DNA of 64,000 nt from a virus. This document shows positions 2,826 through 32,013 of this stretch, one piece after another (position 1 is the first letter of the stretch; each line of letters begins with the position of its first letter). The position numbers were made by a program, and so were the translations under genes. Where the stretch lies: IMG/VR virus record IMGVR_UViG_3300005613_000026, positions 1 through 64,000 of that record. One strand, given 5' to 3'. The notes below the pieces were generated by a model, which had not been told where the DNA came from, ran no database searches, and saw only the letters and a program-made list of their open reading frames with translations.

Positions 2826-3839
2826 TTATAATAAATCTTTATAAAAGTATTTTCTCATCTTATTGAGATTATCCTTTTTCCAGACTCCAGATGCTCTACA
2901 AATTTTTCTAAAATCACAATTCAAACACTCATAACTATCAAAACTGGATGGGCGAGGTGGAGGGAGCTTTTTACCATTTTGAGCAAAATCCATCATAGTC
3001 ATTGCTTGCCATTTTATTATATCCCACCATTTGTCATTTCTGGGGACCATATGCCAACTAATCTCAGAATTATCTTTATTCTCATACATCAAGATCCCAT
3101 ATTCACAATCTAAGATATGAGCATAAATTGTTAACTGTATCATATATTCCTTATGAGGCCCGTATCTCTTTAACTTAGAAGTCCACTGACGACTATTTAT
3201 AGTTTTGAAATCTCCCACAACTCTTTTATCACCTAGAGGCAAATATTTCTTGTTAAATGTAACAGAAACATCCTTGAATTTATCTGGATCAAGCTTCTCA
3301 CAATTATAAACCACGTCTGCATGTCCTTTCATATTCAACTCTGGAGCCTCTACTGACGTTTCATAATACTCAAAATCAGTACAACCACAAGCACATTTCT
3401 TAGGTTTAAATATAGGCTTGTTATTACCATACATCCTGGTTTTATTAGAATGATACAGTGATCTTAACTCTTCTTTATTAATATGTTTCTGATTACCATT
3501 CTCATCAAAAAGATAACATAACGGATTCTTACATTTCCATCTACCTAAAAGTATCTCTCCAATCTGGTCAAAATAATTAACCCATCTTTCGTGCATATTA
3601 TGACCTTTATCAAATAATCTCAATAATTTACTATCAAAAGATGAGAATTCTGATTTAATATATCCTAAGTGCACATAGTGTTTATACTGCTGAGACCTAA
3701 GACACTTACCCCATTCTGAGGGATGATAACTAGCATAACTTCTGTCATCCCTTTGTTGATAATGCTTCCATCTTCTAAAAGTGTCTATCACTCCTATCAT
3801 CGAAGATACTTCTTTAGGTGTGTATTCTTCATACGACAT
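2826..3839 (-). CDS. Cas4/RecB-like PD-(D/E)XK exonuclease with Fe-S cysteines
   Basis: HPSEWGKC, GHAD, DFKT, QLTIY and C-terminal CLNCDFRKIC motifs. Confidence 0.8.
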   Translation of the reverse strand: MSYEEYTPKEVSSMIGVIDTFRRWKHYQQRDDRSYASYHPSEWGKCLRSQQYKHYVHLGYIKSEFSSFDSKLLRLFDKGHNMHERWVNYFDQIGEILLGRWKCKNPLCYLFDENGNQKHINKEELRSLYHSNKTRMYGNNKPIFKPKKCACGCTDFEYYETSVEAPELNMKGHADVVYNCEKLDPDKFKDVSVTFNKKYLPLGDKRVVGDFKTINSRQWTSKLKRYGPHKEYMIQLTIYAHILDCEYGILMYENKDNSEISWHMVPRNDKWWDIIKWQAMTMMDFAQNGKKLPPPRPSSFDSYECLNCDFRKICRASGVWKKDNLNKMRKYFYKDLL

Positions 3840-6432: not shown

Positions 6433-6461
6433 ATATTACATTAAAAACTTTCACTTTTCAA
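6433..6461 (-). promoter_or_regulatory. Class-1 promoter TTGAAA-N17-TAATAT upstream of ssb-recA-dnaG
   Basis: Minus strand reads TTGAAA AGTGAAAGTTTTTAATG TAATAT. Confidence 0.7.
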
Positions 6462-6462
6462 G

Positions 6463-7641
6463 TTAAAAATCGGACCAATCTAAAATTCCAATTTTTTCTT
6501 TTTTACTAGCTACTACACCCTTCGGTGCTGAATCAAAATCTTTCATAGAGGCTTTTTCATATGATGTATTACTATGATCTATCGGAGAATCTTGCTCATC
6601 AACTGTAGGTTGACTATACCTTTCAGCAGGTCTCATCTCCATACAAATCGTTACTTTCCTACTAAGAGTATCATACGCTGCCTCTAATGTCTTTTCTACT
6701 TTATGACAATTATCATAAAGAGACCTAAGTTTGTGATAGTACCATTCTATGTCCCTCATATGCTCCAGAACAAGACCTTCTTGTTTAAGAACAGGTTTTA
6801 AATACTCTATTCTTGCCAGATGACCTCTTAGCATTTCTATCCATCTTCCCCATAGGAAATATTGATTTGTGCAATCCATAGAAATTTGTTTCAATCTTTC
6901 TCTATGCCCTTGAACTTCTTCCATCTGTCTTAGAACAATCTTTTTATCAAAAGTTGTTCCGCTAATATCTACAAAAGCAGACCTAAGTTCATCATCTAAC
7001 CTATCAAAATCTAATTGCTTTTTTGTCATATCTTCTACAAGTTCTCTTTTCTTTTCATAAAATCCCTTATATAAAGGCACAGGAGCTTTTAGCATCCAAC
7101 TTACTTTACCGTTAAACATTTTAACTTCTGTCCCCTTATATTCTTCATATGAGACTTCTACTTCTTCTTCTAATTCTTCTTCAGGTTCAGGTTCAGGTTC
7201 AGGTTCAGGCTCTGGTATACCATCAAATTCTTCGAACATATCATCTGTAACATTTTCCGCTTCTTCAACAACTTCTTGGGGCTTCGCACACATTTGTCTT
7301 ACCACATCATGGGTGTCTTCCTTAGATTCTTCCTTAGATTCTTCCTTAGATTCTTCCTTAGATTCTTCCTTAGATTCTTCCTTAGATTCTTCCTTAGATT
7401 CTTCCTTAGATTCTTCCTTAGGTTCTTCCTTAGGTGGATCTAATTCTGCTCCAGAATCTACATCACTAATTGTTTTAACGACATCTTCTGTAGCCTCTTC
7501 AAAAGTTTTATCAGAAGCTGTGCTATTCCCGTATTCTTCTGCAACATCTGAATCTTCATCTTCAAGAATATCATCAATCAAATTAAAAGATTCTGCAAAA
7601 GAATCCAATGCCTCTTGTCTATCATCTACCATACCAATCAC
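6463..7641 (-). CDS. Acidic low-complexity N-terminus plus helical C-terminal domain; possible UvsY-like recombination mediator
   Basis: KEES and PE repeats; helical region ending ...DTLSRKVT; located next to ssb and recA. Confidence 0.4.
   Translation of the reverse strand: MIGMVDDRQEALDSFAESFNLIDDILEDEDSDVAEEYGNSTASDKTFEEATEDVVKTISDVDSGAELDPPKEEPKEESKEESKEESKEESKEESKEESKEESKEESKEDTHDVVRQMCAKPQEVVEEAENVTDDMFEEFDGIPEPEPEPEPEPEEELEEEVEVSYEEYKGTEVKMFNGKVSWMLKAPVPLYKGFYEKKRELVEDMTKKQLDFDRLDDELRSAFVDISGTTFDKKIVLRQMEEVQGHRERLKQISMDCTNQYFLWGRWIEMLRGHLARIEYLKPVLKQEGLVLEHMRDIEWYYHKLRSLYDNCHKVEKTLEAAYDTLSRKVTICMEMRPAERYSQPTVDEQDSPIDHSNTSYEKASMKDFDSAPKGVVASKKEKIGILDWSDF
7180..7209. repeat. 6-bp tandem repeat (ttcagg)x5 encoding PE repeats
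   Basis: Direct reading of the sequence. Confidence 0.85.
7316..7435. repeat. 12-bp tandem repeat, 8x tcttccttagat + 2x tcttccttaggt, encoding SKEE/PKEE
   Basis: Direct reading; the units are identical at nucleotide level and in frame. Confidence 0.95.
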
Positions 7642-7644
7642 CTA

Positions 7645-7926
7645 TCAAAAATCTAAGTCTATACTATCAGAGGAATGAGTCTCTGGTTTGCTATTTGTCC
7701 TTACTGCACCAATACATCTATTTACTCCATATTTGGCAACAGCTGCATTGTATGTTTTTTCAACATCTTCAAAGAATCTTTCCCTAAATTCATCCATCTT
7801 AAATATTCTTTCTTGCTCTGTTTCCCATTCCAAAACTTCTTCTTCTTCAACAACTACATCTAATTGCTCGTAATCCGCTGTCTTTATTTTACGAACTACA
7901 CCTTTTTTAACAACCGTCTTTGCCAT
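7645..7926 (-). CDS. Hypothetical protein
   Basis: 93 aa with an AAGGAG SD and an upstream TATAAT; ends SIDLDF. Confidence 0.7.
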   Translation of the reverse strand: MAKTVVKKGVVRKIKTADYEQLDVVVEEEEVLEWETEQERIFKMDEFRERFFEDVEKTYNAAVAKYGVNRCIGAVRTNSKPETHSSDSIDLDF

Positions 7927-7975
7927 CTTAATTCTCCTTTATATTATACATAGTAATAACCACTTTGAAAGCAAA

Positions 7976-10597
7976 TTATCCAAAAATATCGGCAGATTCG
8001 ACACCTTTTTTGGCAGCTTTTCTCATATCTTCACGAGCATTAATAAATTGCTCTACAACTTTCTTAGGTTGTTTTGAAACTTTTGTACCCCAGAATCCCT
8101 CTGTAGCTAAAGCCTCGACTGCTCTAGTATCTACAATAGATAAATCAATTTTTTCTACAAAATCCCTCATATCAGGTTTAAAAGGTTGATTCTCTACTAT
8201 GTTCTTTACAACATTACTCCCTATTCCCTTACAATGTAAACTAGGTCTAATCTCAGTTACTACTCCTTCTTTCGGATCTCCTACTTTTTCTATCGTATAA
8301 AACTCTTTAGAATTATTAATACTACGAGGTAAAAATTTAACATTCATTTTCTTTGTAAATTCTTTCTCGAATGCCGCAATTTTATCATACTTATCTGCAA
8401 CATGAGAGTTCAAAGTCACATCCATCAGAGAGCAAATAAACTCATTAGGATAATTAGCTTTAAGATACGCTGTAATATATGAGTTATAACCGTAACAAGC
8501 CGAATGAGCCTGGTTAAATCCATAAGAAGAGAATGGTTTAATAAACTTATCCCAATATTGTTGAGCAACACCATTCGGAACCCCATTCTCAACGCAACCA
8601 CTAATAAATTGCTTTTCAAATTTAGCCATCAAAAACTCTTTCTTTTTACCGATAGCTTTAATCATAATATATCCATCAGTAATAGTAAAATTGGCTAAAG
8701 CATTACAAATCTGCATGACCTGTTCTTGATAACAATTGGAAATAAGTATTCCATTACCAAATAAATTATGATTATCAGCTACAGACATTCCATAAAATTG
8801 AGCATCCTTTATTTTCTCTATAGACCGTATTTTGTAAAAAAATAAATGAGATTTATGAAAACCGTAATCATTTATAAACGAACCATTACACAAAGCACTC
8901 ACAGAGATCACATCTCTTTTATTATAATTACTTCTATTTATTTTATATTTTTTACAAAATGCCCTAACTGAAAGATCTTCTAATTTTCTTTTTTCCTCCA
9001 CATATGACTTTTTATAAAAAACTGTCTTACACTTCCATAGGACTTTAGCATCTTTCTTAATATTCTTCAAAACCATATAAGGAGCAATGTCATCTTTTAC
9101 TCTCCTTCCATTCTGAAAATATATTTTATTATCTTTTAATCTTGTTTCTATTGCAAGCCAATCGCACAGATGCCTCACATCCTCAAGAAGATCTTTATTC
9201 ACACTTGTGTAATTCACATATAAACGATTATCTTTACCATAACCAATATAGCCATCAGAATCAATTAGCCCAGCCAATAACGCTCTTTGAGACTCTTCTG
9301 TCATTTTAAAAATTATAGGAGGTATCCTCTTATTGTAACAATTCTTTCTTAAATCCAAATCATCAATTAATTTTCCAAATTTTGTCTTTCTATTACCACA
9401 ATTTACTTCCTTCCAATCCTCAACGAGTTCATCACAACTAATAGAGATATACCAACTTCTTGTATGAAAATATCTATGAGTTTTTAGTTTTGGCAAACGA
9501 TTATTTATCCATTTTTCTAATATCTCACTTTTTTCCTCATCTCCCACACAAATATTAACTCCTTTATGAATATTTCCGTCCCCAATTAACATCCCTATTA
9601 AATAAGAAACATCTTCATCCATCCCCAACCATGAAAAACAATTATATTTATCTGTATCAATACCCCTACACAAAACGGAAGGGCATCCAACTAAATCTAA
9701 ATCTAAATCTAAATCTTTTACCTCTTTCATCCCCTCCCATGTGTAAACTTTATGATCATCTGTTAAAGTTACAGACCTCCCATTGGACAAAGTTACTTTA
9801 TAGCCATCACACCTGCGAGTTGGGGCACATCCATGACACTCTTTTTCCTCTACAAAGGTTGAATCAGGATATGACAATACCATATCTGATTTTCTAACAT
9901 CCTTAATGGGTTTATGAGATCCATCTGCCATACTAATTAATGTATCTTCATGTATGCACAATACTCCATAAGTTTTCTCTAAATATGGTTTCACATAAGG
10001 TTCAATAGACTTGTGAAAATAACTGACAGACTTTTCGCCTCTCTTGCGAGCGCAATATTCAGGAATACTATCCATAGGACCAGGGCGATACAAAGCCAGA
10101 CCTGCAACTACATCATCAAAACGGTCTACACCAATATCTCTCATTGTCCTCTGCATACCGTATCTCTCGCATTGGAACACTCCTCCCAGATTCCCCCTTC
10201 GATATAGTTCTAAAGTCGGATCATCATCTAAAGGAAGATTCTCAATATCAAGATCTATATCATAATTCTCTTTTACTCTCTCCGCTGTTTTCTTAATAAC
10301 AGAAAGGGTAGCGATAGCAAGAATATCAAATTTTATTAAACCAAGTAGTTCCAAATCTTCATTCGGGAACTGAGTCGCAAGCACTCCTTTTTTAGCTGTT
10401 CTAAGAGGAGCTATCTCATCAAGAGGTACGTTAGACACTACCATCCCAGCAGCGTGAGAATTATGAACAATTACATTATTTGCTATATAATTATGTTCAC
10501 TCTGAAAAAAATCGGGACCAGTGTCAATAGAGACATCATAAACATCTTTAAAATCTAACTCTTGTATAGAATCTATTTCATAAAGTTCAATGTCCAT
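7976..10597 (-). CDS. dnaE: DNA polymerase III alpha (DnaE), fragment 3: split-intein IntC + palm/fingers/HhH, with an internal LAGLIDADG intein
   Basis: HN|SHAAG, LIKFDIL, GVFQ, ALYRPGP, YGVL|intein|CYQEQ, YGFNQAHS, AYLKANYP and KGIG motifs. Confidence 0.95.
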   Translation of the reverse strand: MDIELYEIDSIQELDFKDVYDVSIDTGPDFFQSEHNYIANNVIVHNSHAAGMVVSNVPLDEIAPLRTAKKGVLATQFPNEDLELLGLIKFDILAIATLSVIKKTAERVKENYDIDLDIENLPLDDDPTLELYRRGNLGGVFQCERYGMQRTMRDIGVDRFDDVVAGLALYRPGPMDSIPEYCARKRGEKSVSYFHKSIEPYVKPYLEKTYGVLCIHEDTLISMADGSHKPIKDVRKSDMVLSYPDSTFVEEKECHGCAPTRRCDGYKVTLSNGRSVTLTDDHKVYTWEGMKEVKDLDLDLDLVGCPSVLCRGIDTDKYNCFSWLGMDEDVSYLIGMLIGDGNIHKGVNICVGDEEKSEILEKWINNRLPKLKTHRYFHTRSWYISISCDELVEDWKEVNCGNRKTKFGKLIDDLDLRKNCYNKRIPPIIFKMTEESQRALLAGLIDSDGYIGYGKDNRLYVNYTSVNKDLLEDVRHLCDWLAIETRLKDNKIYFQNGRRVKDDIAPYMVLKNIKKDAKVLWKCKTVFYKKSYVEEKRKLEDLSVRAFCKKYKINRSNYNKRDVISVSALCNGSFINDYGFHKSHLFFYKIRSIEKIKDAQFYGMSVADNHNLFGNGILISNCYQEQVMQICNALANFTITDGYIMIKAIGKKKEFLMAKFEKQFISGCVENGVPNGVAQQYWDKFIKPFSSYGFNQAHSACYGYNSYITAYLKANYPNEFICSLMDVTLNSHVADKYDKIAAFEKEFTKKMNVKFLPRSINNSKEFYTIEKVGDPKEGVVTEIRPSLHCKGIGSNVVKNIVENQPFKPDMRDFVEKIDLSIVDTRAVEALATEGFWGTKVSKQPKKVVEQFINAREDMRKAAKKGVESADIFG
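8735..9958 (-). mobile_element. Contiguous 408-aa intein with LAGLIDADG homing endonuclease in DnaE
   Basis: Starts CIHEDT; block B TLTDDHKV; LIGMLIGDG and LAGLIDSDG motifs; ends GILISN before C+1. Confidence 0.93.
10460..10597 (-). mobile_element. Split intein C-half (IntC, 46 aa) of DnaE
   Basis: MDIELYEIDSIQELDFKDVYDVSI...HNYIANNVIVHN followed by Ser+1 (SHAAG). Confidence 0.92.
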
Positions 10598-10847
10598 AAG
10601 ATTCCATCCTCAATTTTTTTAAAATTGACCATAAATCTTGTAATTCCTTAACATACTCATCTCTATCATATATTACAATTTTACTAACTTTTGTAGCCCA
10701 TACTAAAGCTTCCCTATGGGTTAAAAACCCATCTTTAACAACTTCCCATCCATCTTTTTTTATCTTCCATTCTTCACTAACTATATCATACTCTATAAAA
10801 ACTTCTTCATATTCGAATTGCTCATCTTCCAAATCTTTTATTAACAT
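10587..10847 (-). CDS. Small protein, DUF2188-like (tentative)
   Basis: WKIKKDG...FLTHREALVWA...IVIYDRD pattern; overlaps both neighbours. Confidence 0.45.
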   Translation of the reverse strand: MLIKDLEDEQFEYEEVFIEYDIVSEEWKIKKDGWEVVKDGFLTHREALVWATKVSKIVIYDRDEYVKELQDLWSILKKLRMESYGH

Positions 10848-11710
10848 TTAAACTCTCCTAACTTCTTGCAAATTCTATCTTTAACCTCTTCATCGCTCAT
10901 CTCTACAAAATCTTTTTCCCAAAAAACTAAAGTTTCATAACCACTATCAATACCTAGTTGCATCTTCTTAGCATCGTAATCCCATATATCCTTTGCTTTT
11001 CTTTTTTTGCTAGATATTATTATCTCACTTTTAGCATCATAAAATTCGGGATTAGCATGAAAATAATTTCCATTCATTTCTACCAATAACTTCCCATCAA
11101 CAAAAAAATCAAACAGTCTCCATTTCGTCTTACCATTTTCATAATAACTTAATGAAAAATTTCTAATATAATAAATACTATTCTGATCTAAAATTTTAGC
11201 CATTCTTTTTTCAGTGGACTTTGGATTTCTATTTCTATTAAAACTTTTCCAAGCTTTCTTTAATATCTTTAAATTCCTTTTCTTTCTCTTCTCAAAATTA
11301 GGAGCAGTATAAAATGGATTATTTAAACCTTCCCTTTGTTTCGCATATGACATAATAGCAGGATGATCATATTTCGTAAGACCCTTATTCCACAACCCAT
11401 CTCTCTCTATTTGATTCTTAGATGCCTCAGAAACATTTCTCATTTTAATTTGATAATAATGCATAGTATCAAGAAGAGTTTTTTTATTAACTTCCAACTC
11501 TTGACTCATCATTGGTGTAGATTTTTTTTCTTTTACATACATTTTAATTAAATTCTTTTTAGAAAACCTATCATCTTTTTCATACTTCCACTTATAAACC
11601 AGAATGGGACAATGATTCTTTTTCTTTTCTTTGCCATAAGAACTAGTTATATGTCTTTCCAAAGATACTCTTTTATTAAATTCTTTTCCGCAAATCTTAC
11701 ATTTATTCAT
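10841..11710 (-). CDS. Free-standing homing endonuclease, Vsr/DUF559-like PD-(D/E)XK, between the DnaE intein halves
   Basis: Likely start MNKCKICG at 11710 (GGGAGG SD). N-terminal C2H2-like finger, WNKGLTK and NNPFY motifs, C-terminal FDFF...LVEMNGNYFH...FWEKD. Confidence 0.85.
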   Translation of the reverse strand: MNKCKICGKEFNKRVSLERHITSSYGKEKKKNHCPILVYKWKYEKDDRFSKKNLIKMYVKEKKSTPMMSQELEVNKKTLLDTMHYYQIKMRNVSEASKNQIERDGLWNKGLTKYDHPAIMSYAKQREGLNNPFYTAPNFEKRKKRNLKILKKAWKSFNRNRNPKSTEKRMAKILDQNSIYYIRNFSLSYYENGKTKWRLFDFFVDGKLLVEMNGNYFHANPEFYDAKSEIIISSKKRKAKDIWDYDAKKMQLGIDSGYETLVFWEKDFVEMSDEEVKDRICKKLGEFKC

Positions 11711-11777
11711 TATTATACCTCCCGCAAGAAATAACACTGCTGGCATAATAATTCTACTATTCCTCAAAAAATCCTTT
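11709..11777 (-). promoter_or_regulatory. Class-2 promoter (AAGGA-N15-TAGAAT) overlapping a hairpin that sequesters the endonuclease RBS/start
   Basis: RNA arms AUUAUUAUGCC (11742-11752) and GGUAUAAUAAU (11709-11719) form an 11-bp stem; AAAGGATTTT lies at 11768-11777. Confidence 0.7.
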
Positions 11778-12767
11778 TTTTATTCCATAAATTTTGTATT
11801 TTTCTTTATTCTTTCTAATTTTTTCAAACTCAACACATCCTTGATCTGTAAAAATAAGATGCTCATCAGTTACATCTATAAATCCACCATCTTTGAGTTT
11901 TAATCTATATGTTTTCTTCCTACCTGTTTTAAATAATCTATACTTGTTAGTATAGAAGATATTTCCATCCTTATTAATATATGCTATAGAAAATTTAGTA
12001 GAGAGTTGATCTATTCTCGTCCATCCCTTATCAGTCAAGATAGGTGTATCTTTAGCTAAACACCCGAAATTAACAAATACATTTTCAATAACAGGTGCAT
12101 GTTTTTTTATTTCAGGATAAAGATCCATAAATTCTCTAAAAGTAGAGCAATGAGCATAAGCATCCTCATATGTTTTAATAATATGGTCTTTCCCGTCATC
12201 GTGATCTCTAACCTTTACTAACCCCTTCTTTGGGAAAGGCTCTAGAATCTCAGTGACCTTTGCTGCATTTTCTGTCTTATAGGCATCAGGTCCTTTATGA
12301 AATGCTTGAGCTATATCAAGAGCTTTTGTGACTCTGGTAATACAGGATTTAAATTTAAGCAATCCATGAGTCCCAATATTCCCAACATTCTCCCTGCCAT
12401 ATCTGTCAATAATATACTTGTAGACTGCATCTCTATTCTCATCATCAAAGTCTGTATCAATATCAGGAAATCCTGCCCTTGCAAAAGCTCTACGAGTAGG
12501 CAGAAAATCCCCAGACGGTTTAAAATCTGTCATTTTAAGAGCATATGCTGTCCAACTATTGATATCATTTTTATTTCCTACTTTACCCTGATTAGCCTTC
12601 CATATAGAATAAAAAACATCTAGATTATTCTTATTCTCTAGTCCTTCCGTAGAAGACAAAATATCTAATTCTTCTTCCACTTTTTGAGTGATTTGTGCTA
12701 ACTTGGGATTATCTTTATGAATAATCTTAACACAATCTAATATTTCAGCTTTTTTGTCTTTACTCAT
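11757..12767 (-). CDS. dnaE: DnaE fragment 2: palm (PDIDTDF) and thumb + split-intein IntN
   Basis: GFPDIDTDFD, YIIDRYGRENVGNIGT, then VNFG|CLAKDTPILTDKG. Confidence 0.95.
   Translation of the reverse strand: MSKDKKAEILDCVKIIHKDNPKLAQITQKVEEELDILSSTEGLENKNNLDVFYSIWKANQGKVGNKNDINSWTAYALKMTDFKPSGDFLPTRRAFARAGFPDIDTDFDDENRDAVYKYIIDRYGRENVGNIGTHGLLKFKSCITRVTKALDIAQAFHKGPDAYKTENAAKVTEILEPFPKKGLVKVRDHDDGKDHIIKTYEDAYAHCSTFREFMDLYPEIKKHAPVIENVFVNFGCLAKDTPILTDKGWTRIDQLSTKFSIAYINKDGNIFYTNKYRLFKTGRKKTYRLKLKDGGFIDVTDEHLIFTDQGCVEFEKIRKNKEKYKIYGIKKGFFEE
11760..12062 (-). mobile_element. Split intein N-half (IntN, 101 aa) of DnaE
   Basis: Block A CLAKDTPILT and block B DVTDEHLIFT; the ORF stops without blocks F/G. 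Confidence 0.92.
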
Positions 12768-12803
12768 GAATTACACCAATTTCTCCATTTATAACACCAA
12801 GAT

Positions 12804-12832
12804 AGTATACACTCTGATTTTTCACTTTTCAA
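12804..12832 (-). promoter_or_regulatory. Class-1 promoter TTGAAA-N17-TATACT directly upstream of DnaE fragment 2
   Basis: Minus strand reads TTGAAA AGTGAAAAATCAGAGTG TATACT, followed by GGAG and ATG. Confidence 0.75.
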
Positions 12833-12840
12833 GTTTTTTA

Positions 12841-13035
12841 TTAAAAAACCATCAATTTAAATCTTTCTCTTATATCACTAATGTAATAATCACATATTAC
12901 GGGTTTTAATTTAGGCTTATAACGTGGGGCAAAAAGAGCTTCTACATAATCATCTGGCATCAATCTTTGCCAATATTGTCTTAGCATATTTTTAGCATTA
13001 TCATCCAATTCTACTATTCGAACCAAATCAGCCAT
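12841..13035 (-). CDS. Small hypothetical protein between DnaE fragments 1 and 2
   Basis: 64 aa, TAATG-coupled to fragment 1; ends RERFKLMVF. Confidence 0.6.
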   Translation of the reverse strand: MADLVRIVELDDNAKNMLRQYWQRLMPDDYVEALFAPRYKPKLKPVICDYYISDIRERFKLMVF

Positions 13036-14474
13036 TAGTATCTATCTACTCCACCCATGTCAAACTCATATTCCCTATCATCATCTAGGTCATCCTTATC
13101 AAGAACTTTTTGAATTAAATCAACATCAAATCCAAAATCAGATTCATTAAGAAATCTCTTATTATCGAAACCTAAGAATCTTTCCCAAAGAAGATTCATC
13201 TCCACGGGATCTACTCCATAAGTTATGCCTAAACATCTTAAAAGAACACTGGCATAACCAGACCCTCTTCCAGGCCCAACTAAAATACCCTTTTTTCTAG
13301 CATTTATTATATAATCTCTTACAATAAGAAAATAGGTACTAAAATCATAATTATTAGAATCATAAGCTACTTGAACATCTTTAAGCTCTTTCTTCAAAGC
13401 ATCAACGTGTTTTTTACTCTTATCCCATCCTATCTTTTTCATGCCTTCCCAAGCTAAATCTTTAAGATAATCATAAGAATTTGAATATTTTTCAGGAATT
13501 TTAAATTCTGGCAACCGCATGCCTCCAAATAAATTTTCCTCAATATCTTTAGTATTAATTCTTTCTGCCATCCTAACTGAATTAGTGAAACATTCAGGAT
13601 GACTACCAAAAATCTTTGCCATCTCTTGGGCACTTTTAAGATAAAACTCCATATGAGTAAAACTTAATCTCTTAGGATCTCTAAGACATCTGCCTTGAGA
13701 CATACACATAAGCACTTCTTGAGATGGACCTTGTTCTTTATGAATATAATGGCTATCATTTGTACAAATAACAGGAATACTCAAATCCTTAGATAACTTA
13801 AATATATCAGGAAGAATTTCTCTTTCTTCGGGAATACCATGATACATAGCTTCTAAGAAAAAATTGCCATCAAAGACATCATTTAATAACCCAGCAGCTT
13901 CTCTAGCCTTATCATATCTACCATACATTAAATTAACATTGATAATACTAGACATACAAGCAGAGCTACCCATTACACCCTCTGAATGAGCAGCTAAGGC
14001 ATTAATATCTATACGAGGATCAGAATAAAAACCTTCTACAAAAGAAGCCTGGGATAACCTACAAATATTCTGATAACCTTTATAATTCATTGCAAAGAGA
14101 TTTAGATGTCTATTACCTTTTCTTCCATCAGGCTGATTCTTTTTAGGTTCCCCTCTCTTCTTTTTCTTATCATCATATTGCCCAATATCCATTTTTCTAG
14201 ATACATAAGTTTCGCACCCCAAAATGGGTTTAATTGAGGGATATGGTATGTCTTTATTTTTCTTGTCTTTAGTTGCTCTGCATTCCTTTAAGAATTTAAT
14301 CCATCCCATTATATTCCCGTGATCGCTAATAGCCATAGCTGGAAAACCCATTTTTCTAGCTTGTAAAACTAACTGATCTAATTTTGCAAGACCATCAAAT
14401 TGTGAAAATTCTGAATGTACATGCCAGTGCACAAAATCTTCATTTCGAAATTCCATAAAATATTTCTCCATCAA
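13035..14474 (-). CDS. dnaE: DnaE fragment 1: PHP domain + start of palm (GRGS motif), no intein
   Basis: HWHVHSEFSQFDG, SDHG, GCETY, RHL, SACM, TNDSHY, YFLIV, GPGRGSG and LLWERFL motifs, then an acidic tail and stop. Confidence 0.95.
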   Translation of the reverse strand: MMEKYFMEFRNEDFVHWHVHSEFSQFDGLAKLDQLVLQARKMGFPAMAISDHGNIMGWIKFLKECRATKDKKNKDIPYPSIKPILGCETYVSRKMDIGQYDDKKKKRGEPKKNQPDGRKGNRHLNLFAMNYKGYQNICRLSQASFVEGFYSDPRIDINALAAHSEGVMGSSACMSSIINVNLMYGRYDKAREAAGLLNDVFDGNFFLEAMYHGIPEEREILPDIFKLSKDLSIPVICTNDSHYIHKEQGPSQEVLMCMSQGRCLRDPKRLSFTHMEFYLKSAQEMAKIFGSHPECFTNSVRMAERINTKDIEENLFGGMRLPEFKIPEKYSNSYDYLKDLAWEGMKKIGWDKSKKHVDALKKELKDVQVAYDSNNYDFSTYFLIVRDYIINARKKGILVGPGRGSGYASVLLRCLGITYGVDPVEMNLLWERFLGFDNKRFLNESDFGFDVDLIQKVLDKDDLDDDREYEFDMGGVDRY

Positions 14475-14494
14475 TTATTTCTTCAGTAAATATA

Positions 14495-14692
14495 CTAATC
14501 CATATCTATAAGATCAACTCTACTTACTACTTCTCTTTTGTCAGTAAAAACCACCACTCCGTCATCATCAACAACTTCATATCCCTTTGGATAATTCTCC
14601 ACATGTATTTCTGCATATTTAGAGGCATCATCAGGTGTCTTATATTCTGTCTTCTTTCTATTTTCGCCTATAGGTTTAATAAAATATCCCAT
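14495..14692 (-). CDS. Hypothetical protein with C-terminal SRVDLIDMD motif
   Basis: 65-aa ORF in the operon. Confidence 0.65.
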   Translation of the reverse strand: MGYFIKPIGENRKKTEYKTPDDASKYAEIHVENYPKGYEVVDDDGVVVFTDKREVVSRVDLIDMD

Positions 14693-14694
14693 AA

Positions 14695-15060
14695 CTACTC
14701 ACTTTCAATATCTAAATAATCTAAACGGGTCAATCCTGGCTGAACTTGTATCATTCTATCAATCGTTGTAATAGCATTTATCTTAACAACATCACTATAA
14801 TCTACAGCTTTAATTGTTGTACAAGCCCCATGATCAAAAATAATGAAATCAACTTTCGGAGATTCAACCTTCTTAACTCTTACTTTATTATAAAAAATTT
14901 CCTTATAATCCCCCACGCTAGGAAAGTATTTTTTAAGTGTTAAAGAGAACTCTATTCTCTCTTTTTTGAGGTTATTAAGCAAAGTGGTAATAGTCTCTTC
15001 CTCGATAACTTTTTCATTACAAATTGTAGTAATAATATGTTCTTTCCTTACAAATCTCAT
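14695..15060 (-). CDS. Hypothetical protein with C-terminal TRLDYLDIESE motif
   Basis: 121-aa ORF with an ATGA overlap with the upstream gene. Confidence 0.65.
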   Translation of the reverse strand: MRFVRKEHIITTICNEKVIEEETITTLLNNLKKERIEFSLTLKKYFPSVGDYKEIFYNKVRVKKVESPKVDFIIFDHGACTTIKAVDYSDVVKINAITTIDRMIQVQPGLTRLDYLDIESE

Positions 15061-15487: not shown

Positions 15488-15741
15488 TGTCTAGTGGGAT
15501 CATATCTTTCTCTATGTCCATCTTGAAATCTAATATACTTAGGTTTTACTTTTTTTACATAATCTGGATCTGCTTCAAATGCTTCTCTATCAGACCTCCA
15601 CCCTCTTACGGTTTCAGGAACTTGAAGTCTTTCACATTTTGCTCCATCCTCTGCTATATAAGGCTTATCTATGTCTTTAAAGGGTCTAAGTTCTTCAAAT
15701 ATTTCCCCTGTTTCAGGATGCTTGAATTGGTAAATTGGCAT
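15481..15741 (-). CDS. FmdB-like ribbon protein lacking CxxC pairs, paralog A
   Basis: MPIYQFKHPETGEIFEELR...PYIAEDGAKCERL matches the MPxYxYxCxxCGxxFE layout with the Cys replaced. Confidence 0.6.
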   Translation of the reverse strand: MPIYQFKHPETGEIFEELRPFKDIDKPYIAEDGAKCERLQVPETVRGWRSDREAFEADPDYVKKVKPKYIRFQDGHRERYDPTRHC

Positions 15742-16334
15742 TACTCTTCCTCCTCTATATCCATTATATCAAATCTATTAAATTTATTTTTTTCTTCTCT
15801 TTCTTTTTCTCTCTTCAATTTTCTTTCTTTTTCTTCGGGAGATTCTGAAGAATAAAAAGATTGCTTTACAGACCATTCACCTAACGTAATATCAGGGGTA
15901 TCATCTTCAATAGGATAAAAGACTGAAGTTTGCGAGACTTCCTCAACATCATGATTTAGAGAAATAGTCCAAGACGTACCTCCAGCAGTATCAATTCCCC
16001 ATGAAGTACTTCCGTTCGTCGCTCCGAATATATTACAATCAGAATAATTCAACTGATAAGGATATATTAAATCATACAATAATCCACTATGACCATTATT
16101 CGCTTCGATATTTGAGACCTCTCCAGAAGTATCATCTCTGATCTCTTCTACACCATACGTATCCATCAAATTAATATTTCCAGGTGAATTTTGCAATATC
16201 TGATAAAACAAAAGAGGGACCTCTCCCTCAGGAACATTTTTCCTGTAATCCAGATAATATAGGCGAGCATTATGATACTTCTCTTCATCTTTAAAGACAA
16301 TTATCTTGCCCTCTGTGCAACACTCATAACTCAT
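15741..16334 (-). CDS. Hypothetical protein with C-terminal NRFDIMDIEEEE motif
   Basis: 197-aa ORF, TAATG-coupled to the next gene. Confidence 0.65.
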   Translation of the reverse strand: MSYECCTEGKIIVFKDEEKYHNARLYYLDYRKNVPEGEVPLLFYQILQNSPGNINLMDTYGVEEIRDDTSGEVSNIEANNGHSGLLYDLIYPYQLNYSDCNIFGATNGSTSWGIDTAGGTSWTISLNHDVEEVSQTSVFYPIEDDTPDITLGEWSVKQSFYSSESPEEKERKLKREKEREEKNKFNRFDIMDIEEEE

Positions 16335-16349
16335 TCTGTGTAACTCTTG

Positions 16350-17168
16350 TTAAAAATCCATCAAATCGAAACGGTTTGTTTCTTCAACCGTTTTAGTGCA
16401 TCCAGTCCCTTCTGCCATTTTTCTCTCATAAAGAGAGATTATCTCCTCACCCCTCTTATAAGCTAATTCTTTTCTTTTTTCATTCCACTTTTTACCAAAT
16501 CTTTTCCAAAATTCGCTCCTACGCCATTTAGAATAACCGTTATATTGCCTAATAGTTATATCGTTTTTAGCGAGAATAATCTCCAAAGCTTTTTCTGACA
16601 TAATATCCACCAAAAATGGGTAGTAATTCCATTTTATAATCTGTTCATCAGTATAACCCTTATTCCTCAAATAACCAAGAGTCCAGCCATAGGCAAATTC
16701 TTCCCATATTTCCCTGCTGGAAGAAGAACCTCCTTCCTCAACAAAACAGTAATGACACAATTCGTGAGCTACTACTTCATCTTTTTTAAGCTTAGCCTTA
16801 ATACTCATATCATAACGAGCAGGAGACCTACTATTTATAGGTGCATAGGCTGCAATCACTATTTCTTTAGAACATCTGTCATAAAACCCTCCTGCTCCAC
16901 CATATCCAAGAACCTCTAATAATCTTGGACTTACTTTGTACAAAACAACTTCCTTTACATTCGAACCAGGAAATAAATTATCTACATAATCAAAAGCTTC
17001 AGGATAATCCTCATATCTTATAAGCTTTGTATTCGGACTTTTACGAATTTTTTCCATAGATTTAAGATGCTTTGCATGTGATGCAGTCTGCCTATCTCTC
17101 TTCTCCCTCTGATTCCTGGTCTTTTCAGCTTGACTTACTTTTTTTTGTTTATTAAATGATTTAGCCAT
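16350..17168 (-). CDS. Putative zincin-type metalloprotease, C-terminal NRFDLMDF motif
   Basis: GGFYD, VVAHELCHY (HExxH) and downstream EEFAY; likely start MAKSFNK at 17168. Confidence 0.6.
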   Translation of the reverse strand: MAKSFNKQKKVSQAEKTRNQREKRDRQTASHAKHLKSMEKIRKSPNTKLIRYEDYPEAFDYVDNLFPGSNVKEVVLYKVSPRLLEVLGYGGAGGFYDRCSKEIVIAAYAPINSRSPARYDMSIKAKLKKDEVVAHELCHYCFVEEGGSSSSREIWEEFAYGWTLGYLRNKGYTDEQIIKWNYYPFLVDIMSEKALEIILAKNDITIRQYNGYSKWRRSEFWKRFGKKWNEKRKELAYKRGEEIISLYERKMAEGTGCTKTVEETNRFDLMDF

Positions 17169-31984: not shown

Positions 31985-32013
31985 ATTATAACATCCTATT
32001 TTTCACTTTTCAA
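31985..32013 (-). promoter_or_regulatory. Class-1 promoter TTGAAA-N17-TATAAT with extended -10, heading the replication operon
   Basis: Minus strand reads TTGAAA AGTGAAAAATAGGATGT TATAAT. Confidence 0.8.

Follow-up and report, generated by a model that had tools for sequence, protein, structure and literature searches.

We analyzed a 64,000-nucleotide stretch of viral DNA (here called the window; positions 1 to 64,000 of IMG/VR virus record IMGVR_UViG_3300005613_000026) with respect to its genes for a putative replicative DNA polymerase of the DnaE type. The whole record has 87,575 bases and a CheckV completeness of 18%, which, if right, implies a genome of several hundred kb. The minus strand carries every gene of the DnaE region, where the G+C content is about 32%. 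A first-pass annotation of this DNA, made by a model from the letters and their open reading frames (ORFs), had placed DnaE in three genes, and both our ORF analysis and Pfam searches confirmed this: DnaE is spread over three minus-strand ORFs (fragments 1, 2, and 3), whose main features are as follows.

13035-14474, minus strand: DnaE fragment 1, 479 amino acids (aa) from a TTG start (473 aa in the database gene call, P0143), with a PHP domain, an N-terminal palm half with GRGS and ERFL, and a tail
13845-14429, minus strand: PHP domain, fragment 1 residues 16-210 (Pfam PF02811, E 4.9e-40)
13260-13271, minus strand: GRGS nucleotide-binding motif (copy A), from the alignment to DnaE1
13038-13172, minus strand: tail of fragment 1 after ERFL, with a conserved GFDxKRFxxESDFGF, then a variable acidic linker, then GGVDRY (13038-13055)
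11757-12767, minus strand: DnaE fragment 2, 336 aa, with copy B, PDIDTD, part of the thumb, and the N half of a split intein
12492-12767, minus strand: copy B, fragment 2 residues 1-92, with its best-conserved stretch INSWTAYALKMTDFKP at 12516-12563
12450-12467, minus strand: PDIDTD with two catalytic palm aspartates, from the alignment (residues P103, D104, D106, and D108)
7976-10597, minus strand: DnaE fragment 3, 873 aa, with the intein C half, KFD, the fingers, a helix-hairpin-helix (HhH) region, and the C terminus ..SADIFG
10325-10333, minus strand: KFD, in fragment 3

The Pfam family PF07733 (DNA_pol3_alpha) was covered in three pieces, namely profile positions 1-99 by fragment 1, 69-168 by fragment 2, and 212-260 by fragment 3, such that fragments 1 and 2 overlap on about 30 profile positions. 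Fragment 3 additionally matched PF17657 (fingers; E 1.3e-42), PF14579 (HhH), and an intein with LAGLIDADG. The palm motifs of the DnaE type are likewise distributed over the three ORFs, with GRGS in fragment 1, PDIDTD in fragment 2, and KFD in fragment 3. Among solved DnaE chains, E. coli alpha aligned over its residues 348-450 with residues 54-151 of fragment 2. By its domain content, the polymerase is of the DnaE type of the C family, with a predicted polymerase activity. No second PF07733 locus was found in the 87,575-base record, which is itself only a genome fragment, and no close relative was found in INPHARED, where 186 records matched, all below 60% identity and the best at about 24 to 28%.

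Fragment 1 aligned with residues 3-421 of Mycobacterium tuberculosis DnaE1 (E 9e-61). Residue by residue, its PHP domain matches the M. tuberculosis protein at HxH, DHG, E, H, C, and DxH, which we take to be the metal ligands of that domain. With the last 180 residues of fragment 1 as the query, we obtained 339 matches, and the best 120 of these are nearly all proteins of 440 to 480 aa with a PHP domain and a partial palm; G[RK]GS is kept in 119 of these 120. Conservation along the chain is uneven. The stretch from GRGS to ERFL is the most conserved of fragment 1 (mean pairwise identity, 0.80; n = 119), followed by 0.64 from ERFL to DFGF and 0.34 in the acidic linker, whose median net charge is -8, and the last six residues rise again to 0.91. 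GGVDRY is the very C-terminal end in 74 of the 119 homologues, and a GG-x-[DNQ]-R-[YW] end is found in 88. It was absent from the nonsplit forms checked (0/9 fused and 0/4 contiguous proteins; see below), and within the 87.5-kb record it occurs in fragment 1 alone. A terminus this conserved, at the end of an acidic tether that varies, has the look of a docking peptide, and we regard the GGVDRY tail as a candidate interface element. Acidic tails with an aromatic tip, which the fragment-1 tail resembles, occur in E. coli SSB and in gp2.5 and gp4 of phage T7. Separately, we considered the tail segment SDFGFDVD as a decayed PDxDxD strand and rejected it: a hidden Markov model (HMM) of the RRAFARAGFPDIDTDF segment of fragment 2 scored a median of -1.9 bits on 109 fragment-1 tails, no better than shuffled sequences, 46% of which reach that median. 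The first-pass description of fragment 1 as PHP plus GRGS plus ERFL with an acidic tail and no intein thus agrees with Pfam and with the alignment.

The head of fragment 2, in front of PDIDTD, had been described in the first-pass annotation as a decayed second copy of the GRGS palm segment, with a profile-profile comparison as the proposed check. We built a profile from 134 fragment-2 N termini, cut before RRAFARAGFPDID, and compared it by hhalign with the canonical GRGS segment of 99 bacterial-type representatives, taken from 62 residues before GRGS to 30 after it. The two profiles matched over 77 colinear columns (Prob 91.3, E 9.3e-7), whereas the reversed template gave an E value of 0.21 and 30 column-shuffled templates a minimum of 0.012. 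BLASTP against a contiguous actinophage DnaE-like protein gave the same register, with QKVEEELDILSSTEGL...GNKNDINSWTAYALKMT lying on KRIKHEYEVICATEGF...GRGSSAGSLVCYLLAIT, and G-N-K-N in copy B occupies the place of G-R-G-S. HMMER-level tests were negative: a profile of 16 heads, again cut before RRAFARAGFPDID, matched none of the DnaE chains in the PDB sequences at E<=10, and none of the 16 heads matched PF07733 at E<=1. A local HMM of the canonical segment recovered only 14 residues of copy B (SWTAYALKMTDFKP; 2.5 bits for the window), with a family median of 0.7 bits that 1.6% of 6700 shuffles reach; 127 of 133 alignments began at the same HMM positions (bins 35-44). In an ESM Atlas search with residues 1-92, 28 of 30 matches carried PF07733 (score, 0.91; 143 to 146 of 256 features common), which is a lead only, as the match clusters may be fragments of the same family. 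The tests thus disagree and reach significance only against the broad canonical profile; on that profile evidence, we conclude that fragment 2 begins with a diverged copy of the GRGS palm segment, as first proposed. Residues 61-90 of copy B are as conserved as the rest of the chain formed by fragments 2 and 3 (0.57 versus 0.53; 74 sequences), and the first 30 residues are loosely conserved (0.31).

Fragments 2 and 3 are separated by a second break, which has the appearance of a split intein, and fragment 3 carries a further, contiguous intein.

11760-12062, minus strand: N half of the split intein, 101 aa, beginning CLAKDTPIL after ..VNFG
10460-10597, minus strand: C half of the intein, 46 aa, at the start of fragment 3, ending ..VHN|S, followed by HAAG
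8735-9958, minus strand: contiguous LAGLIDADG intein, 408 aa, CIHEDT...LISN|C (Pfam PF14890, PF14528, and PF05204)

Both halves have canonical junction residues, and Pfam did not call either half alone. Intein-free homologues (P0060 and others) read NFG(C/V)HAAG through the split-intein site. A close relative with the same arrangement as the window at 72% identity (L002) has its intein halves adjacent, with no gene between them, and reads YGILCYQEQ without the LAGLIDADG intein. We computed 654 aa for the spliced chain of fragments 2 and 3, the length expected in the first-pass annotation, and intein-free homologues measure about 645 to 680 aa. In 74 homologues of this chain, P103, D104, D106, and D108 (PDxDxD) are invariant.

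The division into a PHP-bearing and a PHP-less protein is widespread. Searching with residues 1-130 of fragment 2, we obtained 48 matches of nearly the same length, most of 330 to 349 aa, a length which suggests that they too end in an intein half, and 94 longer matches, mostly PHP-less proteins of 645 to 680 aa that correspond to fragments 2 and 3 without inteins. A natural intein-free pair of the two halves, P0144 and P0065, is recorded for a contig of 72,600 bases. G[RK]GS occurs nowhere in 138 of these 142 proteins, and in none of the 138 PHP-less ones. To locate whole loci in IMG/VR, we used the motif Nx[IV]NSWTA[YFW], which yielded 15 loci, 13 of them split and 2 with a fused gene. In all 13 split loci, the two fragments share a strand and fragment 1 comes first, upstream of fragment 2, which answers the proposed survey of relatives for the same break, and the related contigs reach 548 kb. 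The first-pass annotation had called the architecture unusual. With 339 fragment-1-like and 138 PHP-less matches, this does not hold for the clade: as judged from these searches, the two-gene architecture is the norm of a large clade and not a quirk of the window genome.

Nature also provides INTERMEDIATES of its own, i.e., natural INTERMEDIATES in the form of fused genes with both copies and contiguous genes without copy B. Nine proteins carry both copies in one chain (P0128, P0136, P0263, P0264, P0266, P0267, P0286, P0371, and P0405); two IMG/VR contigs, each from another metagenome, carry P0128 (1089 aa) at 100% identity. The distance from GRGS to PDxDxD is 137 to 156 residues in the fused forms versus 39 in 99 canonical representatives. 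Contiguous forms without copy B also occur inside the clade (P0141, P0142, P0265, P0268, and an ORF of locus L001), and P0141, P0265, and the L001 ORF lack both the tail and the head found at the cut of the window. No contiguous protein with copy B alone was seen among those examined. Two side observations belong here. The fused protein P0264 (1426 aa) has an intein at the GRGS position itself (...FIVHN|SGYGS...), and L001 (4696-9339), a 40%-identical relative in which DnaE is contiguous over both breaks of the window, has a different split intein further on (..YGFN|MCLDG), with a 384-aa free-standing ORF between its halves.

We placed these forms on two quick maximum-likelihood trees, one for the C-terminal part with 60 rows and one for the N-terminal part with 49, sampling every second row of alignment A3 and every third fragment-1 homologue of 455 to 485 aa, and dropping four rows without an ERFL match. 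Another alignment (A2), which combined a fused protein with both half-families, was discarded because MAFFT misplaced the C-terminal halves (11 to 17% identity to the first row). Three fused forms (P0371, P0405, and P0286) stand at the base, next to the outgroup, and most split forms make up one clade (SH-aLRT support, 98 in the C-terminal tree). P0141, whose contiguity rests on a single 5.6-kb Logan contig and which gave no match in viral_contigs, falls inside the 15-row split clade of the window in both trees (support, 99 in the C-terminal and 97 in the N-terminal tree), and it is the direct sister of window fragment 1 in the N-terminal tree (support, 99; 74% identity over 427 columns). The starred branches require at least two to three changes of the split state and at least three to four of the contiguous state. 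We read this as a duplication that came first, a fission within the duplicate, and several later clean removals of the extra piece. In view of the fused relatives, the break of the window would lie inside a preexisting duplication or insert; and since at least three lineages returned to a contiguous gene, copy B appears to be dispensable there. Copy B was lost at least three times, and copy A never.

From these comparisons, we consider it probable that the two proteins form a noncovalent complex, in which a PHP/GRGS N subunit and the 654-aa spliced core share one composite active site. As these comparisons show, the DnaE gene has undergone a real, old, and conserved fission, with the cut lying within a tandemly duplicated piece of the palm. 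The N subunit would be fragment 1, with PHP, the first palm half, the working GRGS, the arginine of ERFL, and an acidic linker that ends in GGVDRY. The C subunit would arise from fragments 2 and 3 when the split intein joins them and the LAGLIDADG intein is removed; it would present the GRGS-less copy B first, then the DxD strand, the aspartate of KFD, the thumb, the fingers, and HhH. The two subunits would associate without a covalent bond into an enzyme with a single active site, to which the N subunit contributes GRGS and the C subunit three aspartates, along with all parts that hold the DNA. We infer that this site is composite and that copy B and the GGVDRY tail serve as interface elements. 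Three observations favor a composite site: the distribution of GRGS and DxD over the two proteins is complementary and nearly universal, GRGS to ERFL is the best-kept part of fragment 1, and the revertants join copy A to the core and drop copy B. The first-pass annotation had likewise proposed a noncovalent PHP/GRGS subunit beside a spliced chain; the separate, colinear genes and the division of GRGS and DxD between them are on its side, and this support is comparative in kind.

Several results weigh against a composite site. Copy B runs colinear to the canonical segment and stands at a nearly canonical distance from PDIDTD, and its arginines that align with those of canonical ERFL and PER are invariant in 74 homologues; copy B could therefore fill the canonical place itself, leaving no room for copy A. 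Besides, G64 and N67, which align with the G and the S of GRGS, are invariant in 16 sampled N termini, a hint that copy B retained a function. Compared by hhalign with the GRGS-bearing copy A of its own clade, copy B gave no significant match (E 0.14 and 0.18), and both trees are quick ones with long branches among the basal forms. The colinearity, the spacing, the arginines, and G64 and N67, together with the core-like conservation of residues 61-90, also speak for the main alternative, which we regard as unlikely: the C subunit might be a self-sufficient core whose canonical position is taken by copy B, with G-x-K/H-N as a variant motif, and fragment 1 might be a detachable PHP subunit for proofreading or another accessory role, its half-palm serving for folding or docking. 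Such a core would, however, leave unexplained why GRGS to ERFL is so strongly conserved and why the motif is retained in 119 of the best 120 of 339 fragment-1 homologues; nor would it account for the repeated loss of copy B where copy A was never lost, or for the replacement of the G-S pair in all 138 PHP-less proteins.

A further possibility, which seems to us rather improbable, is that the tail, the genes in the gap, and copy B make up a mobile "fracture cassette." Such a cassette would occupy one site, be patchy among close relatives, and be lost precisely, as happened at least three times, and it would bring its own palm copy, one that resembles bacterial-type DnaE more than the copy A of the clade. 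Copy B might then be a placeholder in the triphosphate-binding position, to be displaced by the PHP/GRGS subunit on its tether, the acidic GGVDRY tail, so that the polymerase would be licensed only with its proofreader bound.

The smaller features around the polymerase genes are as follows.

12841-13035, minus strand: 64-aa gap ORF, ending RFKLMVF; no Pfam family; homologue seen only in L002
12804-12832, minus strand: promoter-like site TTGAAA-17-TATACT, containing the 13-mer TTGAAAAGTGAAA; 10/12 consensus matches
10841-11767, minus strand: 308-aa free-standing ORF located between the two halves of the split intein; its only Pfam match, to a C2H2 zinc finger, is weak and below the cutoff
10587-10847, minus strand: 86-aa ORF ahead of fragment 3; no Pfam family

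Fragment 1 ends at a TAA codon, with several further in-frame stops downstream of 13035, and the gap to fragment 2 is 267 nucleotides (nt) long; the start of the 64-aa ORF overlaps the last base of the fragment-1 stop codon (TAATG). It is very improbable that the two fragments are joined after transcription or translation, by an intron, ribosomal bypass, or a cryptic protein-splicing element. The two ORFs do share one reading frame, and the tail and copy B together (about 45 + 92 aa) come near the size of a mini-intein, which is a matter of arithmetic only. Rfam, however, gave no family at E<=1 in 7500-15000, be it a group I or II intron or another RNA element, and Pfam matched neither Hint nor intein families in the tail of fragment 1 or the head of fragment 2, whose termini at the break also lack the Cys/Ser/Thr and His-Asn junction residues. 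The tail is conserved right up to the stop codon (GGVDRY), and a joined product would carry the segment twice, although fused genes with both copies exist. Furthermore, all 13 split IMG/VR loci have gaps between fragments 1 and 2 of 607 to 2857 nt that hold unrelated genes, among them a ClpP protease (E 6e-44), D12 adenine methyltransferases (E 8e-23), a dCMP deaminase, an S-adenosylmethionine methyltransferase, and a zinc-finger protein, as well as small ORFs ending RFEILDL; no Pfam match to an endonuclease family was found among this cargo. Gaps filled with unrelated cargo genes practically rule out read-through, bypass, a simple intron, decay, and misassembly. That the break is a pseudogene, a decaying gene, or an assembly artifact, for which the stop codons speak and which short public contigs matching the window (X1 and X2) do not address as none spans the break, is extremely improbable: hundreds of clusters of many different origins share this break, motifs are invariant and termini conserved, and L002 is arranged alike at 72% identity. 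Judged by these comparisons, the first break is real, free of inteins, and neither damage nor misassembly.

Whether fragment 2 has its own promoter, as the first-pass annotation had proposed together with separate regulation, received a divided answer. The promoter-like site lies 37 nt upstream of the fragment 2 ATG, and consensus promoter matches in the region are not in excess (22 versus 21.4 in shuffles). The 13-mer TTGAAAAGTGAAA, on the other hand, occurs exactly three times in the window (6449-6461, 12820-12832, and 32001-32013), always on the minus strand that carries the genes, and each copy is followed by a -10-like box at equal spacing and by a gene start. The motif and the -10-like box also precede fragment 2 in locus L009, and a one-base variant does so in L008, whereas no motif of this type was found before fragment 2 in 10 of 12 related loci inspected. 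The recurrence of TTGAAAAGTGAAA with a -10-like box makes a separate promoter for fragment 2 plausible in the window, and the motif is a candidate for a phage promoter class; it is not a general property of the split loci.

At the second break, the 308-aa ORF occupies the position of a homing endonuclease. By eye, it may resemble the Vsr-like family, and Pfam assigned it to no endonuclease family. A comparison with the gap ORF of L009 as a member of the same family was rejected (E 0.052), and no endonuclease of the same family is therefore claimed for the gap of the first break. The C terminus of the polymerase, ..G(V)xSxD(I/M)FG, is found in the window (7976-8011) and in the distant P0128, P0107, P0130, and P0060, and it presumably resembles the clamp-binding C terminus of T4 gp43.

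Several observations on small genes and unusual homologues were made in passing. Small, otherwise unrelated ORFs, including most of the ORFs in DnaE gaps, often end R-F-(E/D)-(I/L)-(L/M)-D-(L/I/F), as with RFEILDL in L008 (2833-3946) and L009 (3465-3926), RFELMDI in L002 (5279-7997), and related ends in the window at 12841-12864, 15741-15776, and 16350-16373; this ending looks like a shared C-terminal tag. In five loci (L014, L015, L019, L021, and L022), a D12-class adenine methyltransferase in the gap stands beside an unassigned ORF of 170 to 187 aa, and the two may constitute a small restriction-modification-like pair. The DnaE gap of L009 holds a 110-aa ORF (3152-3484), just 3' of a 345-aa zinc-finger ORF, that ends with ELEDDLGGVDRY, as does L009 fragment 1; an insertion may have left a duplicated gene end behind here, or this may be a second protein with the same docking peptide. 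The fragment-1-like ORFs of L012, L013, and L019 measure 845 aa, about 375 aa above the usual length, the excess presumably being an intein within PHP or the palm.

C-family polymerases are taken to be single chains with an active site from one polypeptide. In a large clade among the largest phages known, this site appears to be made by two proteins: one carries the proofreading PHP domain and the nucleotide-binding motif, the other the metal-binding aspartates. The split, fused, and contiguous revertant forms provide a natural comparison set for how an essential enzyme survives a cut through its core. There is also a practical side, in that annotation pipelines will label the halves partial or PHP-only and the replicative polymerase of such phages will be missed. 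Our literature searches gave no account of a two-gene DnaE that has both a PHP domain and a duplicated segment; the supplements of Dassa et al. (2009) and Iyer et al. (2021) could list such loci. In their passages on gene structure, surveys of bacterial C-family polymerases (PMC12926913 and PMC3919608) mention only intein splits and frameshifts, and PF07733 has been reported as a marker of the largest marine jumbo phages (Weinheimer and Aylward, PMC9123017), with no split mentioned in the text on that marker. An intein-free polymerase encoded in pieces, as found here, is common in nature and apparently unpublished.

Known split polymerases differ from the first break in distinct ways. Cyanobacterial DnaE is encoded in two genes, dnaE-n and dnaE-c (cited in PMC2677866 and PMC3919608); according to these accounts, its halves lie at separate loci, are cut at another site, and are rejoined by a split intein into one chain, unlike those at the first break of the window. 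Fractured genes, in which a split intein has a free-standing gene for a homing endonuclease between its halves, were described by Dassa et al. (2009, NAR 37:2560, PMC2677866), whose main text includes three metagenomic DnaE loci of this kind. The second break of the window has this very layout, with the intein N half, a free-standing ORF, and the intein C half. The one intein-less fracture in that text concerns an SbcD-like gene with extra residues at the cut; we found no intein-less DnaE fracture there, and the first break is not covered. Mycobacterium phage Fowlmouth (MH834613.1; L023, 1490-4680), a cultured actinophage, has a DnaE-like protein in two adjacent overlapping coding sequences, gp85 and gp86, with no intein according to its GenBank annotation. 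By Pfam, gp85 holds PHP and positions 14-259 of PF07733, and gp86 the fingers and HhH, such that the cut lies between palm and fingers. Unlike that of the window, it is outside the active-site region, and no duplicated segment was seen.

The closest counterpart in the polymerase itself is the split "minimal" Pol III alpha predicted in T4-like (group 2.2) jumbo phages (Iyer et al. 2021, Viruses 13:63, PMC7824862). As there described, a C-family module is cut, without an intein, into an N-terminal nucleoside triphosphate-binding protein and a C-terminal Mg- and DNA-binding protein that are predicted to form one enzyme, much as we propose here. Topologically, the cut falls at the same point as in the window. 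That version, however, is a miniature without PHP and other Pol III domains, is encoded by distant genes, and accompanies a family B polymerase, whereas the polymerase of the window is full-size with PHP, its genes for the first two fragments are 267 nt apart, and its C-terminal protein has a GRGS-less second copy.

The closest counterpart in the manner of the cut is the ribonucleotide reductase of phage Aeh1, where the endonuclease mobE split NrdA into NrdA-a and NrdA-b and the new tails at the cut are essential and act as interaction domains (Crona et al. 2011, NAR 39:1381, PMC3045599). As presented in that report, this is likewise an essential enzyme encoded by two colinear genes without an intein or intron and with extra tails at the cut. 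Its gap holds the endonuclease gene, whereas that of the window holds only the 64-aa ORF without a Pfam family. Besides being a different enzyme, the DnaE of the window has an N-terminal "tail" that would be a diverged duplicate of host sequence, and its split is clade-wide rather than confined to one phage. A wider question is thus whether duplicated segments and terminal peptides are a general fix for enzymes cut in two, as the work on Aeh1 NrdA proposed.

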